Source: Neolecta irregularis DAH-3
Taxonomy: Eukaryota
Reading direction: 5' to 3'
Assembly (NCBI GenBank): GCA_001929475.1
Contig: LXFE01000148.1
Coordinates: 1-32,314 of the forward strand
Length of the DNA: 32,314 bases
Shown here: positions 21,277 to 32,314 of the stretch, piece by piece
Layout: every line of letters begins with the position of its first letter
Numbering within the stretch: the first letter of the stretch is position 1
Program-made: the position numbers and the translations under genes
Notes under the pieces: generated by a model
Seen by the model: only the letters and a program-made list of their open reading frames with translations
The model's database searches: none
Told to the model about the DNA's origin: nothing

Positions 21277-23293
21277 TGCTGGATGGGGCGAAATGAGGGA
21301 CTGTTATATATCCTGCTTGAGTCACTAACCGCGTGAGAAGCAGAATTCTTGTATTGAAACCAATTAAAACGCCTCATTCGTTAACGAATATGTTCGTACC
21401 AAATGTTAGCCTTGTTTCTTTCGGAGGTGCCATCTGCACACAAGCTACTTTTCCTTAGTCACCTGAATTTCAAGGGAATGAAGCTAAGTTTCGTGAATAC
21501 TGATTAGATAAGACTTGATTCATGAATTATTGCTTCAAGACCCAGTAGATGTCGATGTTTCATCAATGGCTCCTAAAAAATTACCTGATCAATAATACCA
21601 TTAGGCGATTGGCTATGATCCTTTTATCTTACTTCTTGGAAGAATATTGAAGAATTCGTCTACATCATCGACTTTAGTCAGCTACGGGAATATCCTCCGG
21701 TAAATTTCGAATGGTCTGAGATAGTTGGTCTAGTACTGAAAGTATTCAGAAACCAAGGATCTTCTATCTATATATCGATACATAAAAATCACAAGGTGTG
21801 AAAAGCTTGAAATTATCTTTCAATTGTCTTTAGGCTATTGTTCTCAGGAAGAGGATTAAGGGAAGGCCAATTATCGCGAGCTTGTCATCATACTCATGAG
21901 GACTATTATATCAAATCTCGTGTTTCATACGAGAGTATAATCAGTCTTCCACGAAGATCGACCTCCGCTATACGTAGAGCTTCACACTATCGCAGGCAAA
22001 AAGTGCATAGGCTGTCCTACAATTCTCAGCACCAAAGTTTTAGCCTGAAGAATTACGGACGAAACAGTAGAATCCGAATCTAGGATTTACATTTGACAGA
22101 TGAGATGATTGGGGTTTGGAGCGAATTCCCTGCATGTGATAAAGAAAAGCGCGAGTTCGGTTTATGCCAAGAGACCAACCCACCTTTTAAGTAAAACGAA
22201 ACAACATGAAACTAGTTTCGAGAAATTCTTGCTTTATCAAATAACCAACAGTTTCAAAGATCGACAATTTGCTTTTGCTTTACTGCTGTGACTCTAATCA
22301 TTCTGTCTTGATTAGGCCTATATCCTTGTGATAATCGCCAAAGCGGTCTTATTATTTCATTGCTGAACAGTCCTCCTGAGAAATGAAAGCTCGAACCAAA
22401 GGGGATTTGGTTGTGCGCCTAAAAAACACCAATCACTGTAGTAGTTCATTGTCACAGGGAATCAGCACTGACCGGATGGCATGTATGTGCCTGTGCACGA
22501 TTGAGTTTAGAGTGAAAGGAGCTCAAGCAATTCTTTAAGATCAACATGCCACACTCACAAGAACGGGCCATAGCTTCTAAAGGAATTTTCCCAGGCCAAG
22601 AAGGTTAAATGGCAGCTAACTCGCTTCATTTTTAGTCGCTTTTACAACCCTCCATGTATCCACCGCTTTTTTCAATGTGAGGACGCCTGTTAACACACAG
22701 GTTCCAATCAGTGTTCACAGTGAGTTTTAATTGCTTTGACAGGCGGTGGGTTTTTGGTGGAAATGGGGTTTGAAGCTTTGGTGTGCGAGGGCGGGGTCTT
22801 GGAGCGAGGAACCAAGTTATCAAAAGACTTGACTCGCTATTCAGACAGCATCCTCTTCTATCAAAAAAGAAACCTTCGCAGCCCTTTTATCGTATCCGCA
22901 GAACACAAGCTATGCCAAGTGGTTCAGAAAAACAAAAATGATAAAGTAGTAAATAAAAATAAAAGATAAGAAACTTCTCTAAACTAGACCTAGTGAGACA
23001 ACCAGCCGCATTCCCCTATACAAGAGACCTATGGCAAGCCAGACCGATTCAATGACCTAGTTCTTCAAAGTTAAACGAAACACGACGTTGGTTTTGGATG
23101 ACCGCGTGCTGAGACGTCTAAAAATGCCGCGCAAAATAGTTGAGGTAAATGATGTGATGATATGGGATAGTGATAGGAGTTCCGAAGGAGCTGGGGGGTA
23201 ACTGTTGGGGTAAATAGGGATAGTGGTAGGGTGAGGGAGTAGAAGAGGTTTGTCGCTGTAACCGGAAAATGAAGAAATGCGTATTTCCAAGTT

Positions 23294-23497
23294 ATCAGGA
23301 CGGTATCATGGAGATAATCATCATATAGGTTCTCCTTCTATGAGGTCACATCTTGATCCGATAACCCTTTGCCGACGTCAACCTTTGGAGGAGCCAAACT
23401 GCCCTGATTGCGAACTTCCCAAGCTAGACTAACAATATAATTCATTTCGCCTTCTTTTGTGCCAAGTATATCTAACATTTTGGTGCGTCCAATCTCA
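23294..23497 (-). pseudogene. inverted ~204-bp copy of 25015-25218 with a premature stop
   Basis: About 12 mismatches by eye. The parent TGG (Trp) is TAG in the copy. Confidence 0.9.
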
Positions 23498-23927
23498 CGC
23501 CCAAGGTGTGCTACATTATTCACTGGCTATAATCGTGCTTACTCCGAGTTACCAAAACTCTGGTGGATTAAGTCTGACGGATTTAACTCGTAATTCCGCT
23601 CGAATTAAGCTGTTGTGTTATTCAAAGTTTACCTAATTCAGCCACTTCGTCATCAAGAACTTCATCCCACAAACTTTTAAGTATTTTCTCACAATTTCGT
23701 ACCTTGGATAGTAACGTTCCGGTTGGAAAACCTATATAGCTTGCCGGATTCCTAGCAGTATGCGGTTGGCTTTCGAAGGTAAATTATGAGTGTATCACAA
23801 AAGAGACCTCAGACAGCGCTAAGCTACTCTTAATCTGCATATTGCCCCGCCTGCCTCCCTGTCCCTCTTCCCTTTTCTACTCCTATTTGATCATTTATTC
23901 CAATTGATTCTTTCTTGTTCCCTATCG

Positions 23928-25300
23928 ATGGTTAATCTACGATCTTGGATTTCGTTGGCTCTGCTACTTGTAGTACTTTACATAATATACAAGATCGACA
24001 GGTGTACAGTTCTTGCGACAATCAGCTCAGAAGCTGATGGTTTTCCAGACAATGAACCCGATATTGCATATTTCTCTTCGCGCAGGATGTTTTCATCTAA
24101 CCATCCTTTTGGAGTAACAGAGATATGCTCCACTCATCATATCCTAACCAGCCCATCGAATCCCCACGGAATCACCCCAATCGACTTCGGCTCCGCGAAA
24201 CTCAATCCAAATATCCTTCCTCTTCCCCCCAATGCAAAATATCCGTATTTTATCATTGGGAGATCTACGACGGACGGTTCGTACCAGGAAATTGTGGCCT
24301 GCTTTGCGGATTTTGAACATCTACCATTGACACAACGTCGTATTCTCAAGTGCGTTGACGAACCAAAAGTGATCACGGTCCCAAGCACGAAGGCCAAAAA
24401 ATGCGAGAAAACATGGATGGAATTAGTGAAAGGACCTCATGACCCTAGAGTTTTTTGGAGTCCGAAGGGAGAGCCACTCATGACTTTTGGCACTCAGAGT
24501 TCATTTACTTGTTTTGGCCAATGGATTGTCGATTTACGGGCTGTTTATCAACCATTGAATGACCTTCTCAGTGGAACTATCGGGGGAAATATTAATTTTT
24601 CCGAGCTACAAGAGCTTCGACGGCCTGAGCCTTATGGCGAATTCGAGAAAAATTGGTTTTTGATCTGGGATGAAACCGGAGATATGTATGTTCATCACGA
24701 CTCAAATCCCAGAGTCTTTTCAAAACTCGGCGTCGAAACCCCGGTGAATTTGGCTCAAGAGAAGCCTTGCAGATCACGTATACCACTCTGGTTGAGTTTC
24801 AATAACTTGCAGTACCAGACCCATCGCTGCTTCCAGAAGGTGTCGACCATCATCAATCGACAAACACCCTCCTTGTCTTCCTATGCAAACGCTTGTCCTG
24901 CCCACCCAATCCCCCACAAGTCCTTATATCTATCCATCAAAAGAAATACTTTGAGATGTATCACGCATTCTATCAGCGATATGTAATTGTTTACTCCGCA
25001 ACTTTTCCATTTCATGAGATTGGACGCACCAAAATGTTAGATATGCTTGGTACAAAAGAAGGCGAAATGAATTATATTGTTAGTCTAGCTTGGGAAGTTC
25101 GCAATCAGGGCAGTTTGGCTCCTCCAAAGGGTCACGTCGGCGAAGGGTTATCGGATCAAGATGCGACCTCATGGAAGGAGCATCTATATGATGGTTATCT
25201 CGATGATACTGTCCTGATCAGCCTAGGAATCGAAGACAAATATAGTGCGATGCTCGATGTAATAGCACAGGACTTGGTTGGATGCTTGGACACGTGTTAA
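23928..25300 (+). CDS. type II membrane protein, putative beta-mannosyltransferase-like (GT91/GH130-like) enzyme, 2 exons
   Basis: N-terminal TM helix, GPHDPRVFWSPKGEPL, EKNWFL, HQSTNTL. Intron 24778-24812 joins ORFs 23904-24986 and 24893-25300. The family assignment is tentative. Confidence 0.65.
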
Positions 25301-25627: not shown

Positions 25628-26332
25628 ATGGTAACACCACCTTTATTCAACCCGAGTCTGACCAATTGTAGTCACAGACACTCCGTCCATATTTATCTGC
25701 TGTCCGTTCTTCTCTGGCCGCTGCTTTGTGTCTAGAGAACTTTGCATCCCAAGTCGTGGAGCGCCACAATAAACCTGAAGTTGAAGTCAGGTCTAGTCTC
25801 CCATATACGACATTCATCCGCCATGCTGACTGCTGTTAGAACGACACCCGAGGTCCTTCTGCAGCCTATTCATATTTCGCGGAACGAATCAGAACGTGTA
25901 CTTATAGAACCATCAATTAATTCAATTCGGTTCAGCATCAAAATTAAGCAGGCAGATGAAATCGAACATGTTCTAGTTGATCGGTTTACTAGATTTTTAA
26001 TGGGCCGTGCAGAGGCTTTCTTCATTTTGCGGAGAAAGCCAATCAAAGTAGATTAATCGACAATGCATTTTTGACAACTAAGGGCTATGATATATCCTTT
26101 CTAATCACCAATTTTCACACAGAGAGTATGCTAAAGCACAAACTTGTGGATTTTATCATCGAGGTATCCTTGATTTTGGTTCATTCAGTTGATCTGTAGT
26201 TCATGGAGGAAGTGGACGCGGAAATCAATGAAATGAAACTTTTCCTGAACGGAAGGGCCCGATTCATTGCTGAAAGTTTTTTGGCACAGGCATAGCACAC
26301 TTTTTTGACGTTTCTGACATTAGTTCGATTAA
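25628..26332 (+). CDS. ARC19: Arp2/3 complex subunit ARPC4, 6 exons (exon 1 coding part is ATG only)
   Basis: [61 protein letters not shown]. The last intron 26290-26323 has a GC donor. Confidence 0.95.
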
Positions 26333-27189: not shown

Positions 27190-29220
27190 ATGTCCAGAGG
27201 ACCTGCAATGCAACTCGGGTTTAGAGATGGCCCGCGACATGCAAACCTATTACTTCGAAAATCTAGTTCGTCTGCGCTGTGGATGGATCAAACTTGTACG
27301 CCGATGACCAGTCGTCCTCCTAGTCCTAAAATTGGGGCGTATGAAGATTATTTCTTGTGGTTCGAGCACTGATCTTGTAGAACAAAAGGGACTATTGATA
27401 TTCCTGGGCTTACGCGGGCGAGAGGTATGTTATTCTTGACAGGCTCCAGATAATGATATTCAGGCGGTCGCCGTAACTCAGACGATATTGGTTCAAAGTT
27501 GTGCATCGCTTTAGTCGGCCTACCTGCCAGAGGAAAATCCTATATTGTGAAAAAACTGGACCGCTATCTTAGATGGTAGTCGATCAGATTACATCAGGTT
27601 CATTGAGCAAATAGGCTTCAACATTCTACGCAAATCTTCAACGTCGGAAATTTGCGCCGAAGAAGATCCTGTGCATTAAATGACCACGATGCAAAATTCT
27701 TTGATCCCCATAATGAAGCTGCTAGGAATGTCAGGGAAGAGTTGGCAAAAGAGTGCCTCGAAGAACTAATTCATTTTCTCCTCTATGAGGGAGGCACTGT
27801 GGGTATCTTAGGTATATATCGACAAACTCTGGTCAGAGATTGACAAATTTCATAGACGCGACGAACTCTTCTCGTAGCAGGCGAAAAATGATTATAGAAA
27901 GAATAGCCCAAGAACCACATCTCAAGAGTAACTGTTAGTTTTCTGTAACTCTCTAATCGTTGCAGTACTTTTCATCGAGTCGATATGTACGGAAAGCGAG
28001 ATACTCGAAGCGAATATACGTCTGAAGCTTTCTGGACCTGATTATCATGACAAAGATCCCAGGTTATCACTTGTAGACTTTCGGAAGAGGATAGAAATGT
28101 ATGAGCAAGCCTATGAAACCATCGACGAAGACAAAGAAGAAAACATACAGTATTGCAAAGTAAACTCTTTCATTTCCGATGATATATAATAACTTGTAGC
28201 TGATCAATGTCGGAAAGAAAGTTGTTGCTTATAACATACAAGGATATCTCTCAGGTCAGGCAGTGTATTTCTTACTGAATTTCAACCTTGCACCACGGAT
28301 GATTTGGATTACACGTCATGGTAATTCTTCTTGTATATCTGTTTTGATAAGTTAGGTGAGTCTGAAGATAACCAAGAAGGAAGGATTGGAGGGGATGCCG
28401 TTCTAACCGAACGAGGACATCGTTACGCAAAAGCTCTTTCTAGATTTCTCGAACGTATGGCTAGTGTGAGCAATTCACCCAACTGATCTTTAAGAACAAC
28501 GCCGTGATTTTAATGATCGCCAAATTGAACTTCGCCAATGTAAATCTCCACTAATGTTCACAAGTTCACCTCCTCCGCCGTTAATAGAAAAATCATTCAG
28601 CGTTTGGACAAGCATGATGCAACGATCTATCCAGACATCGGAGTTTTTTGATGAAAGTGTTTACGACGTCAAAATGATGAGGATGCTGGACGAAATCAAC
28701 GCTGGTATCTGTGAGGGAATGACATACGAAGAAATAAAGCAGAGCTATCCAGAGGAATTCGAGGCAAGAAAACAAGATAAACTGAACTATCGCTATCCTG
28801 GGCCAGGAGGTGAGAGTTATTTGGATGTCATCCATCGACTGAACAGTGTGATTGTTGAGGTTGAGCGGTACGAATCTATACATATTGATTCACTAATGCT
28901 ACATTCTCAAGGATGACGGATCATGTATTACTCATAGGTCATCGTGTTGCAACCAGGATTTTGCTTGCCTACTTCTTGAACCTCGATCAGAAGGCATGAA
29001 AATACACATGTGCTGGAAAATATGCTGACTCTTCTTTCTAGCTTATTACTGACCTTGATGTTCCCTTGCATTCATTGTACGTTTTAGAGCCAAAACCATA
29101 TGGGACAGGCTTTAAAAAGTATTTTCGATTCAACCTGTTTTGGTTCTCTAACGCCGCAGGTTCACGTATGACGAAGGGAATGATCAGTTCATCGAAGCAA
29201 ATATCAAAGGCGTGTATTAG
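27190..29220 (+). CDS. PFK26: 6-phosphofructo-2-kinase (Pfk26-type), ~12 exons
   Basis: TIDIPGLT, VGLPARGKSY P-loop, FNVGN, DATNS, LFIESIC, WITRHGES, LDEINAG, YPGPGGESYLDV. Intron 28994-29041 has a GC donor. Confidence 0.9.
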
Positions 29221-29493
29221 TCTGCATCTTGTATGCTATTGAGTTTCTTTGGTTGTATGTTGATTTGCGACGGTTTCGGGGTTTGGCACATGGTACTTTT
29301 ATTCTGGCTTTCATATTTTTCGCCCTAAATGTTATAAGGCTGTTTTTTCTGCTGTATTTTGATCCTTTGAGAGATATTGTAGCATAGTTGAAGGGTGTTG
29401 TCGTGAGACTCAATCAGGTAAATCGTATAACAGTATAAATGAGGAGATCTATTTCAACATTTGACCACAATCCCCAAACCTCTATTTCATAAA

Positions 29494-31361
29494 ATGAGCA
29501 ATAGAAGCCCATCTTCAGCATTGGTTGCCTGGATGCAGCTTCTGTATGACTTCAATTATAACATGACTAATGTGACAGGATGAATGCTAAAGCAACAAAT
29601 ACTCATGTCTTGAAAGATTATGATGTTAATGTTAAAACTTGTTCTTTTGACAACTTCTTACAATATTCAACCTCAGGACCTGAACAAGGTACTATTGGAT
29701 CCTCTACAGAAGAAGAAAGAAGGAAATTCTTAGGTTTAATTCATACAGAACTGGAAAGAAGTATACCTCTTTCCCAAGAGTATTGGAGTTTGATTGAGGC
29801 ATTGAGTACAGTAAAGTCTTGTAGTTTGTCAATATTTGATAATTTAGGCAAAGCCAAATGATTCTTTAGAACAAATCAATCACTCTTTTGACAATGAAAC
29901 TCATTTGCCACAATTAATACCAAAAGAAGCTACTAAAGATAATGATTCTGCCATTAGTTCTGTATTGATTTATTTCTACTTCTGCTAAATTTCTTAGTAT
30001 AAAACAACAACTGTAGTTCCAACTCCTTTTGTGAAATCTCCAAGGCAAAATACTAATGATAATTCTCCTATTATACCTTTAACCCAAGCTTTTGTTGGAC
30101 CAATAGTTCCAGTTATTTCTATTTATCAACCTGAAGTTACTATTGGGAGACTTAGTACTGCTATAACTGATAATAAAGTTAGAATTGCTTTTAGAAAACT
30201 TCAAAGTAATTCTGTATTATATTTCTCAATAATATCTTCTAATAATATAGGCTTCTGTTAGACAAATTATTAAATTAGGTATTCCTTCTATGGTTAAGGC
30301 AACTATTTTAATAAGTTTAACAATAGCTAATCATTAGATTGATCCATTTTCTATTAAACAGTCAGAAGGTTTTGAAAATACAAATTTCTATCTAAATCAA
30401 AAAGAGCTAGATCCTTTCAACCTGAACCTACCTCTACCTTCTGCCAAAGGTATTCAATGGCATCTCAAATGGCCTAAAGAAAGAAATTTAATACTAGTAC
30501 CTATATTACCTTTATTATCTATCAAAATTATAGAAGATAATATAGTACAAGAAGAAGAGAATTCTAGAACATTTAGTATATCTAACTTAATTTCATATTC
30601 AGAACCAAGAATACCTTCAACAAATTCAATAAATAAAGCCAAAGAGAATATTGTTTCAAGTCCTAGATTATATTCTTGGGCTTCATGTTGTAGTAGTCTT
30701 ACAAGTACTCCAAGTCCAGAAAAACAAGTTTCTCCCAACAAGCAACTAATACAAGGAGGTGAAATACTTGATAAAAAATACAAAGGTAGGAATTTTATAC
30801 AAAAATCTTGGTCTCCTGCAATAAATCAACAATGTTTTATTGATAAAAAAGAATCTCCTTTAGATATATCCTTACAGTCTTTATTAGTTAAAAATTTAAA
30901 TCAACCAAAAATATCTTTCCAGTATTCTAATAAAAATAAAGGAAAATCTCTTTTGAAATCAAAAATAGAAACTCCCTATGAAAATGATACTGAACCTTGG
31001 TTATTTAATAAAGAAAGTCCATTTTTTAAAAGACCAATTTACTTTAACTCCTCAAAATATATACAAAAGGTATTTTATCTTAAAATTAATCTCTTATAAC
31101 CTTAAGATATCTTCTACATCTCTTGAGCACTCCCACTTAAATATAAAAGATGATGAGGTATTACTTTACCCCAAAAAGGATATACAGAAGAATTCTACAA
31201 ACTATTCAAATACAGATATCAGTATATTATCAAAAATAGAGATTGAAGATATTAACAACTTTATTATCAGTGAGTTAAGGGCTAAAGGTGAGAAAGAAAC
31301 TACTCTAACAAGATATAAAAAAGTACTCAATAGTTTATATGAAGAACAATATCTTATTTAA
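29494..31361 (+). CDS. orphan protein (~550 aa), 7 exons, no CpG
   Basis: Introns 29544-29578, 29811-29847, 29962-29997, 30214-30250, 30299-30337 (GC), 31070-31106 give one stop-free frame, including a 732-nt exon (30338-31069) missed by the ORF track. Confidence 0.65.
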
Positions 31362-31429
31362 AAGTCAAGGTTTTGTTATTATAAGTTTTGTAATTGTAAA
31401 ATATACTATATCCAATAAAACTTGGCTCA

Positions 31430-31775
31430 GCTTGAGAAGGGCGATATGGATAATGGGGGCTTGAGGTGGGCGAGACAGGCGCGCAAGATGGGAGGGCAAG
31501 GCGGGAGAGGTGCACAAGCCGGGAGAGACGGGCGGGCAAGACATGAGTGCGATGTGGATATGGGGAGCGCGAGACAGGCAAGGTGCGAGACAGGCCACAG
31601 GTGCGCGAGGAAAGAGAGGTGCGCGAGGCATGAGAGGCGTGAGAGGCAGGCGAGATAGGAGAGGCGCATGAGGCAGGTGAGATGGGAGAGGTGGGCAAGA
31701 TGGGAGAGATCGGCTGGCGAGGCGGGCAGACGAGGCTGGTAGGAAGGCGGATAGGAAGACAGGGGAGGAGAGGGC
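31430..31775 (+). repeat. purine-rich degenerate tandem repeat
   Basis: Recurring GCGAGACAGG, GCAAGATGGGAG and GAGAGG units. Confidence 0.7.
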
Positions 31776-31804
31776 TACATAGTATTATTGAATATCAAGT
31801 GAAA

Positions 31805-31906
31805 AGGTCCATTTCGGCCCATGGGCCAATGGGCCGGGCTTTTTTCTGAGCTAAGCCCACGGGTTTTTCATGGGCCGGGCTAAGCCCATGGCCCGTCCCA
31901 ACACTG
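31805..31906 (-). mobile_element. hAT-like transposon end with GCCC/GGGC subterminal repeats
   Basis: Minus strand reads CAGTGTTGGGACGGGCCATGGGCTTAGCCCGGCCCATG from 31906. GCCCATGG, TGGGCCGGGCT and GCTAAGCCCA are each repeated. Confidence 0.55.
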
Positions 31907-32314
31907 AACATGATGATATTGACTGTCAGCAGATATCGTTTTGAGCTCCTTTTGGTGAAAATTAGTGGGGAGATCGAGAACCGGCTTTTCGAGATTGTCC
32001 AGTACTGGATGCGGAGATGATCCCTGCAGATATCCCCAGGCAAATCTAGTGTAATAGGCTGGGAAGTCGGCACACCGAGCGAGGACCCGCGCCAAGCTAG
32101 TTGTGTGCGATTGCAAACTGAGGATGCTTTGCCAGTAGCCGGGCCGCTACGATGCATAGGGCTTCGGTAGCAGAGACAGACGGACAAGAGCCGCGCGAGA
32201 GGCCGCTGCGGGTGCGGGTGTGGCTGCGGGAAGGGCTTTAATGTGGCGTCGGGCGCAACCGGGAGGGGACGCCGCAGCCGCCGCCACCGGCAGAGCGTTC
32301 CGGGAGGCCGGCGG

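Follow-up and report, generated by a model that had tools for sequence, protein, structure and literature searches.

Analysis of a 32,314-nt window of the Neolecta irregularis DAH-3 genome (contig LXFE01000148.1, positions 1 to 32,314 of the forward strand; all coordinates refer to this window) revealed a 2016-nt block, from 29426 to 31441, that contains no CpG dinucleotide and encloses an intact, spliced and transcribed gene. The whole window carries 1275 CpG dinucleotides, and its longest gap from one CpG to the next runs from 29424 to 31442 (2018 nt), compared with 245 nt for the runner-up. Based on the mononucleotide composition of the block (A771, T660, C321, G264), 42.0 CpGs are expected and none is observed (Poisson P = 5.5e-19); none of 20,000 mononucleotide shuffles was CpG-free, the minimum being 22 CpGs (0/20000). 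The rest of the window has a CpG observed/expected ratio (o/e) of 0.89, with 0.85 in the left flank (29221-29425) and 0.91 in the right flank (31442-32314, GC 0.60). The original prediction, made by reading the letters of this stretch, had reported exactly this absence of CpG beside neighbors that carry it. Base composition alone, which it had named as an explanation that would count against its reading, is contradicted by the shuffles and by the other AT-rich parts of the window: all eight of the other 500-nt windows with GC of at most 0.36 contain CpG (4-16, against 13-15.5 expected).

CpG is absent within codons, across codon boundaries and in introns, and the cause therefore acts on DNA rather than through codon choice or translational selection. 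In the gene, the expected CpG counts are 10.1 (codon positions 1-2), 11.4 (positions 2-3) and 9.1 (codon boundaries), with 0 observed in each class, and only 1 of 20,000 shuffles of codon order (1/20000) lacked a boundary CpG. The depletion holds on both strands and independently of frame (NCG, 0/48; NNC/G boundaries, 0/45). The six introns of the gene (GC 0.23) contain 0 CpG, compared with 7 CpG in the 211 nt of five host introns (GC 0.45); the noncoding parts of the block have 6.3 CpG expected. When the encoded protein (P0001) was rewritten in the codon usage of the neighboring open reading frames (ORFs), the resulting sequences carried a mean of 61 CpGs and a minimum of 41 (2000 draws).

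Codon use in the gene departs from that of the neighboring ORFs (2875 codons) in the same direction. GC at third codon positions (GC3) is 0.17 in the gene and 0.44 in the neighbors, which have a CpG o/e of 0.95 and use CpG codons freely (TCG, 41; CGN, 123 of 209 Arg codons). All 17 Arg codons of the gene are AGA (13) or AGG (4), with no CGN, as had been predicted, and the Arg content of the protein (3.1%) equals the host share encoded by AGR codons only (86/2875 codons, 3.0%). The 244-codon exon 6 has 0 ATG and 0 GTG codons together with 15 ATA, 6 CTA and 12 TTA, in line with the earlier description of it as lacking the former and rich in the latter.

Comparison of third-position contexts revealed a two-part signature, a context-flat and roughly twofold loss of G and C plus complete loss at CpG. 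The third-position ratio G/(A+G), gene versus neighboring ORFs, is 0.18 versus 0.37 after A, 0.22 versus 0.37 after G and 0.22 versus 0.59 after T, and 0/48 versus 0.41 after C. The corresponding C/(C+T) ratios are 0.17 versus 0.57 before A, 0.18 versus 0.40 before C and 0.23 versus 0.43 before T, and 0/45 versus 0.38 before G. Assuming host usage at the start, the loss by context is 100% at CpG, 63-70% at CpA/TpG and 41-55% at the others.

Selection on the gene is visible in its open frame, in GC1 and GC2 values above GC3 (0.37, 0.36 and 0.17 for codon positions 1, 2 and 3), and in the retention of 27 Gln (CAA/CAG) and 7 Trp (TGG) codons, even though C-to-T or G-to-A changes there give stops. 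The proposal that the gene stayed under selection despite a mutational process is thus in keeping with the DNA-level loss of CpG, which fits mutation filtered by selection.

Gene structure and transcription

The seven exons splice to a stop-free frame of 546 codons that is identical, letter for letter, to the deposited protein P0001 (hypothetical protein NEOLI_001749 [Neolecta irregularis DAH-3], 546 aa), and the original model of a frame of about 550 aa in seven exons is therefore borne out. Under local composition (stop probability 0.081 per codon) an open frame of this length has P about 1e-20. The other frames of the gene carry 38 and 69 stops (sense) and 45, 19 and 56 stops (antisense). 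In a three-frame reading the long open stretches lie on the + strand and switch frame along the block; four of them, of 96, 87, 253 and 130 codons, have P values between 3e-4 and 6e-10 each, with 5.7e-10 for the 253-codon frame around exon 6. All six frame changes fall at GT..AG introns of 35-45 nt, of which five begin with GTA and four have CTAAT near the 3′ end. Exon 5 is the least secure; it lies in a 28-codon open frame with P = 0.095 taken alone. An alternative genetic code (table 4) gave no useful lengthening of the frames, and Rfam and tRNA scans of the window returned no match.

Two public sequencing runs, X1 and X2, neither of them listed as RNA, cover the stretch, with matches accepted down to 80% identity. 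X1 may be the run from which this DNA derives. X2 carries the catalogue label 'DNA?', but its contigs leave out four GT..AG stretches (45, 35, 41 and 49 nt) in neighboring genes that X1 retains, and we therefore treat X2 as similar to complementary DNA (cDNA-like). X2 depth is present in every bin across the CpG-free gene, and the gene is transcribed as judged from this cDNA-like contig cover. One X2 contig piece runs unbroken from the acceptor of the upstream gene's 41-nt intron, at 29160, to 29543, the modeled donor of exon 1, and a second X2 contig first matches the window at 30336, just 2 nt ahead of the modeled start of exon 6, with 129 letters of the contig lying elsewhere. Among the joints listed, X2 piece ends thus back the splicing of the gene at two of its twelve exon edges. 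The gene is intact and spliced, as first proposed, on the strength of its open frame and of the cDNA-like contigs across it. The Neolecta genome paper describes sequencing of fruiting-body DNA and RNA, a genome of 14.5 Mb with 44% GC and 5,546 genes, and RNA-seq support for 99.4% of gene models (PMC5309816).

A 6-phosphofructo-2-kinase/fructose-2,6-bisphosphatase-like gene lies upstream, with a His_Phos_1 match at 28494-28913 and, by our reading of the sequence, a stop codon at 29218-29220. Between its end and the start codon of the CpG-free gene is a spacer of 273 nt. We also observed that a single X2 contig (2401 nt) continues from the final exon of the upstream gene through the spacer into the first exon of its CpG-free neighbor, which reflects either overlapping untranslated regions merged in assembly or read-through transcription. 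Five host introns were delimited from X2 skips or piece ends (24004-24048, 24778-24812, 25631-25671, 25791-25839 and 29119-29159); they are 35-49 nt long and have CTGAY-type branch motifs.

Copy number, flanking repeats and protein searches

The gene is single copy in run X1, in the window and in the protein libraries searched. One X1 contig spans 25681-31545, and the summed depth over 29224-31287 equals that of this contig alone (348.8), even when matches of at least 80% identity are counted, from which single copy in X1 follows. Neither self-BLAST nor tblastn found a paralogue in the window, and the protein libraries returned only the gene itself; self-BLAST of the window gave three pairs, none overlapping the block. 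The suggestion of a multicopy gene, for which a BLAST search for paralogues had been proposed, accordingly finds no support.

Judged by sequence comparison, the protein has no detectable relatives in the libraries searched. With the 253-codon stretch as query, phmmer found one real match among 1.84 billion representative proteins, P0001 itself (99% identity over residues 219-464); a second match, P0002 (E 4.5e-4, best stretch 28 residues), is of low complexity and was treated as spurious. Word-index homologue searches accepted 0 of 350 candidates for the 253-aa exon and, for the whole protein, found only itself among 8000 candidates scored. No Pfam family was assigned to five ORF pieces (E up to 0.1) or to the whole protein (E up to 10), the sub-threshold match among the ORF pieces being TssR_M (0.094), and sequences in the Protein Data Bank gave no match at E up to 10. 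Pattern searches for relatives returned 80 matches in metagenome contigs and 5 in viral contigs, with 0 confirmed in either.

A structure search, also suggested at the outset, was uninformative: the ESM Atlas gave no usable feature match, and structure matches had template modeling (TM) scores of at most 0.26 on a model with a predicted local distance difference test score (pLDDT) of 0.30. A single-sequence AlphaFold2 model has a mean pLDDT of 33.6 and a predicted TM score of 0.19, with only the last ~40 residues, in helices, at 62-74. The composition of the protein favors S, I, L, K, N, E and P at the expense of R, A, G, M, H and C, and no Met occurs beyond residue 218 (last 328 residues, P = 3.5e-4). 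Two 19-residue stretches reach a Kyte-Doolittle hydropathy of 1.69, which is borderline, and contain proline.

Tandem repeats adjoin the right edge of the block and are followed by a dispersed repeat (Table 1). The neighboring high-copy repeats are not depleted of CpG: o/e is 0.91 over 31442-32314 and 0.80 in a further dispersed repeat at 22688-23375 (GC 0.43, X1 summed depth 5500-6400). An exact 22-nt pattern from the flanking repeat had 0 matches in metagenome contigs, and a search for terminal or direct repeats or target duplications bounding the block found only weak pairs at chance level. We also observed a 204-nt inverted repeat (94% identical, 23294-23497 and 25015-25218) that brackets a gene with ORFs at 23823-24986 and 24806-25300. 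At the opposite contig end, positions 1-530 are AT-rich and in part poor in CpG (1-500 has 4 CpG where 13 are expected), and a tandem unit of roughly 30 nt, in about three copies, can be read from the sequence at about 60-160.

Table 1. Features in and around the CpG-free block (window coordinates).
Feature	Coordinates	Strand	Remarks
CpG-free, AT-rich block	29426..31441	.	GC 0.29; 0 CpG; from 68 nt upstream of the start codon to 80 nt past the stop codon
Exon 1	29494..29543	+	ATG at 29494; its last position, 29543, is exactly the end of a piece of X2 record 11
Exon 2	29579..29810	+	Preceded by 35-nt intron 29544-29578
Exon 3	29848..29961	+	Preceded by 37-nt intron 29811-29847
Exon 4	29998..30213	+	Preceded by 36-nt intron 29962-29997
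Exon 5	30251..30292	+	14 codons; preceded by 37-nt intron 30214-30250; least secure exon
Exon 6	30338..31069	+	244 codons; preceded by 45-nt intron 30293-30337; piece of X2 record 12 begins at 30336
Exon 7	31107..31361	+	Stop codon 31359-31361; preceded by 37-nt intron 31070-31106; X2 record 13 covers 31140-31894
Purine-rich, GC-rich (0.61) imperfect 9/18/27-nt tandem repeats	31442..31794	.	CpG o/e 1.01; abut the right edge of the block
High-copy dispersed repeat with GGCCCATGGGCC palindromes	31795..31975	.	X1 summed depth 5847 in bin 31632-31975, compared with 349 where sequence is unique
Last exon of the upstream 6-phosphofructo-2-kinase/fructose-2,6-bisphosphatase-like gene	29160..29220	+	Follows 41-nt intron 29119-29159; the same piece of X2 record 11 begins at 29160

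Origin of the CpG-free block

We tentatively favor a reading in which the CpG void arose by locus-confined C-to-T decay tied to cytosine methylation, or by a process resembling repeat-induced point mutation (RIP) or methylation induced premeiotically (MIP), with the frame kept by selection; we hold it to be plausible and by no means assured. Mutation of C to T and G to A, confined to the locus, would have pushed the whole transcription unit to GC 0.29 and GC3 0.17, with cytosine methylation followed by deamination removing CpG fully and other cytosines in part. A RIP- or MIP-like response, provoked by an earlier duplication or by the neighboring repeats, may have been the trigger, and purifying selection would have preserved the frame together with the branch sites and all six pairs of splice sites. 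An AT shift that is absolute at CpG and otherwise flat across contexts, centered on the transcription unit and with normal flanks, points to a locus-confined cytosine-to-thymine process. The introns are of the host's ultra-short type (35-45 nt; host 35-49 nt), which argues for a gene of the Neolecta lineage.

The profile of GC3 along the gene is consistent with an in-situ process centered on this domain, since GC3 reaches its minimum (0.07) midway along the unit and stands at 0.23-0.28 at its ends. In successive 60-codon blocks the values are 0.28, 0.23, 0.07, 0.07, 0.18, 0.12, 0.12, 0.20 and 0.25, a U-shaped course with heterogeneity (chi-square p = 0.005) and no trend towards the flanking repeat. 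Raw GC does drop from 0.37 to 0.23 in the 5′ to 3′ direction, because codon positions 1 and 2 change and not GC3. The earlier observation that AT content is higher nearer the repeat therefore stands for raw composition and does not extend to synonymous sites, and the idea of an effect spreading from the repeat is at odds with the composition of the repeat itself (GC 0.60, CpG o/e 0.91) and with the lack of a GC3 gradient.

Several observations weigh against decay in place. Simple recent decay of CpG to TpG should leave an excess of TpG and CpA, and dinucleotide o/e values reveal none in the block (TpG 1.01, CpA 0.96; symmetrised 0.99, compared with 1.09 in the host), so that the plain methylation-deamination first suggested is not borne out. 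A defence aimed at repeats would have spared them here, since the adjoining repeats keep their CpG, and among the differences listed between repeat copies (40 of 121) only 7 of 28 transitions are at CpG sites. The gene is transcribed, unlike typical methylated fungal DNA. Neither a paralogue nor an orthologue was found by which the changes could be polarised. The flat non-CpG context fits equally well a long equilibrium in an AT-rich, CpG-poor genome, that is, a foreign origin. Finally, RIP is reported as undetected in three other Taphrinomycotina, a survey in which Neolecta does not figure among the species named (PMC7882544).

A foreign origin, with an AT-rich and nearly CpG-free genome as donor and the DNA not yet at host composition, we regard as possible but doubtful. 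The route could have been horizontal transfer, introgression or carriage by a transposon, the last being the alternative raised in the original prediction. A foreign origin would account for a sharp compositional island (GC 0.29, against 0.39 to the left and 0.60 to the right) in a gene that adjoins repeats close to the contig end, and for synonymous sites that are flat across non-CpG contexts (0.17-0.23) and lack the host preference for NTG or NNC/A. Amino-acid use also leans towards AT-rich codons, with more N, K, I and S and less R, A and G, and no homologues of the gene were found. For the flat context and the orphan status this origin is as good an explanation as locus-confined decay, but it does not explain the introns, all six of which match, at 35-45 nt, the unusually short introns of the host. 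Neither is there a donor-like relative among the 1.84 billion representative proteins, the metagenome contigs or the viral contigs, and terminal repeats or target duplications were not seen around the block. GC3 is U-shaped along the gene rather than uniform, and the upstream housekeeping gene ends just 273 nt before the start codon.

The remaining explanations are less likely than either locus-confined decay or a foreign origin. Classical RIP, or RIP leakage from the adjacent repeat, is improbable on several counts. Usual RIP thresholds are a TpA/ApT ratio of at least about 0.89 and a substrate index, (CpA+TpG)/(ApC+GpT), of at most about 1.03. Of the RIP indices named as a check in the original prediction, TpA/ApT reaches its threshold for the block as a whole (226/219 = 1.03, compared with 0.5-0.8 in most host windows; 0.99, 1.01 and 1.16 by part, 5′ to 3′). 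The substrate index of the whole block is 1.16 (205/177) and lies outside its threshold; it falls from 1.28 through 1.12 to 0.91 along the block, as TpG o/e does from 1.20 through 0.82 to 0.74, and only the last 372 nt come within the limit. Depletion of Met, His and Cys and enrichment of ATA and TTA also have a RIP-like direction. Against these stand the preferred context, which here is CpG and not CpA, third-position TpG that is not depleted beyond ApG and GpG in absolute terms (0.22, against 0.18 and 0.22), and a repeat that is itself unmutated, with no GC3 gradient towards it. No duplicate was found by X1 depth, by self-match or by tblastn in the window, and RIP has been described as undetected in the three related species surveyed (PMC7882544).

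There is a slim chance that selection acted against CpG, so that a gene beside methylated repeats would stay active without a CG substrate, or that selection acted on the RNA. The void tracks the transcription unit, from 68 nt upstream to 80 nt downstream, and the gene is transcribed though it abuts repeats; this fit to the unit is, however, weakly determined because the noncoding parts expect so few CpGs (6.3). Selection would leave the general AT shift unexplained, and we know of no precedent in fungi for its removing all of about 42-61 CpGs, introns included.

Least probable of all is an annotation artefact, in which short introns were chosen so as to give an open frame to a decaying pseudogene: exon 5 has just 14 codons, AT-rich DNA supplies many GT and AG sites, an X2 piece starts at 30336 and not at the modeled 30338, no joint inside the gene is among those listed and the structure model is poor (mean pLDDT 33.6), but the long open stretches, the strong codon periodicity, the placement of all six frame changes at short GT..AG introns (five starting GTA), the cDNA-like piece ending exactly at the exon 1 donor and the reported RNA-seq support for 99.4% of Neolecta gene models (PMC5309816) argue for a genuine gene.

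Comparison with known systems

RIP is known in Pezizomycotina, with leakage into single-copy genes beside repeats in Neurospora and in the AT-isochore effector genes of Leptosphaeria. As in RIP, the Neolecta unit is AT-enriched at the DNA level beside repeats, TpA/ApT is raised and CpA/TpG are lost more than CpC/CpT when measured against host codon usage; like the genes affected by leakage, the Neolecta gene is orphan-like and fast-evolving. Unlike in RIP, the context eliminated is CpG rather than CpA, the gene is intact, expressed and without a duplicate, the neighboring repeat is untouched and the substrate index of the block stays outside the RIP range. Unlike known RIP hosts, the Taphrinomycotina are reported to be without RIP on the basis of three species surveyed (PMC7882544).

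The Neolecta depletion shares with decay by 5-methylcytosine deamination its specificity for CpG, which extends to both strands and to every codon position. Such decay is known from vertebrate genomes and from methylated repeats of Tuber, Ascobolus, Uncinocarpus and Cryptococcus. It differs from the depletion seen here, which is total (o/e 0, with a 95% upper bound of about 0.07 by our own Poisson figure), comes without a TpG/CpA surplus, and affects one active single-copy gene while the adjoining repeats are spared. As in systems with 5-methylcytosine decay, methyltransferase-domain proteins are reported in N. irregularis; a preprint describes these proteins at the level of the PF00145 C5-methyltransferase domain (10.1101/2023.05.12.540427). 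With islands acquired by horizontal gene transfer the block shares sharp GC and CpG edges, foreign codon usage and the lack of paralogues; unlike such islands, the gene has six spliceosomal introns of the host's unusual length class, and no donor relatives were found. A literature search returned no paper combining 'Neolecta' and 'CpG' and none naming the locus tag NEOLI_001749.

A bolder form of the favored reading, which we consider rather unlikely, is that Neolecta possesses, or possessed until recently, a C-to-T hypermutation process of the RIP/MIP type that depends on a methyltransferase and prefers CpG. On this view it struck one functional gene, which selection maintained but whose ancestry was erased ('orphan by hypermutation') and which would now, next to repeats, be immune to CG methylation. 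With no CpG remaining, the block offers no site for CG methylation.

RIP-like defence is described as absent from Taphrinomycotina (PMC7882544), the subphylum to which Neolecta, an early-diverging ascomycete, belongs. If the gene is foreign, it would represent a rare transfer from eukaryote to eukaryote into a 14.5-Mb genome. If the process acted in place, the locus would preserve a natural trace of cytosine mutagenesis with context specificity in such an ascomycete, would illustrate one possible route to orphan genes, and would offer a natural case of a gene beyond the reach of CG methylation.

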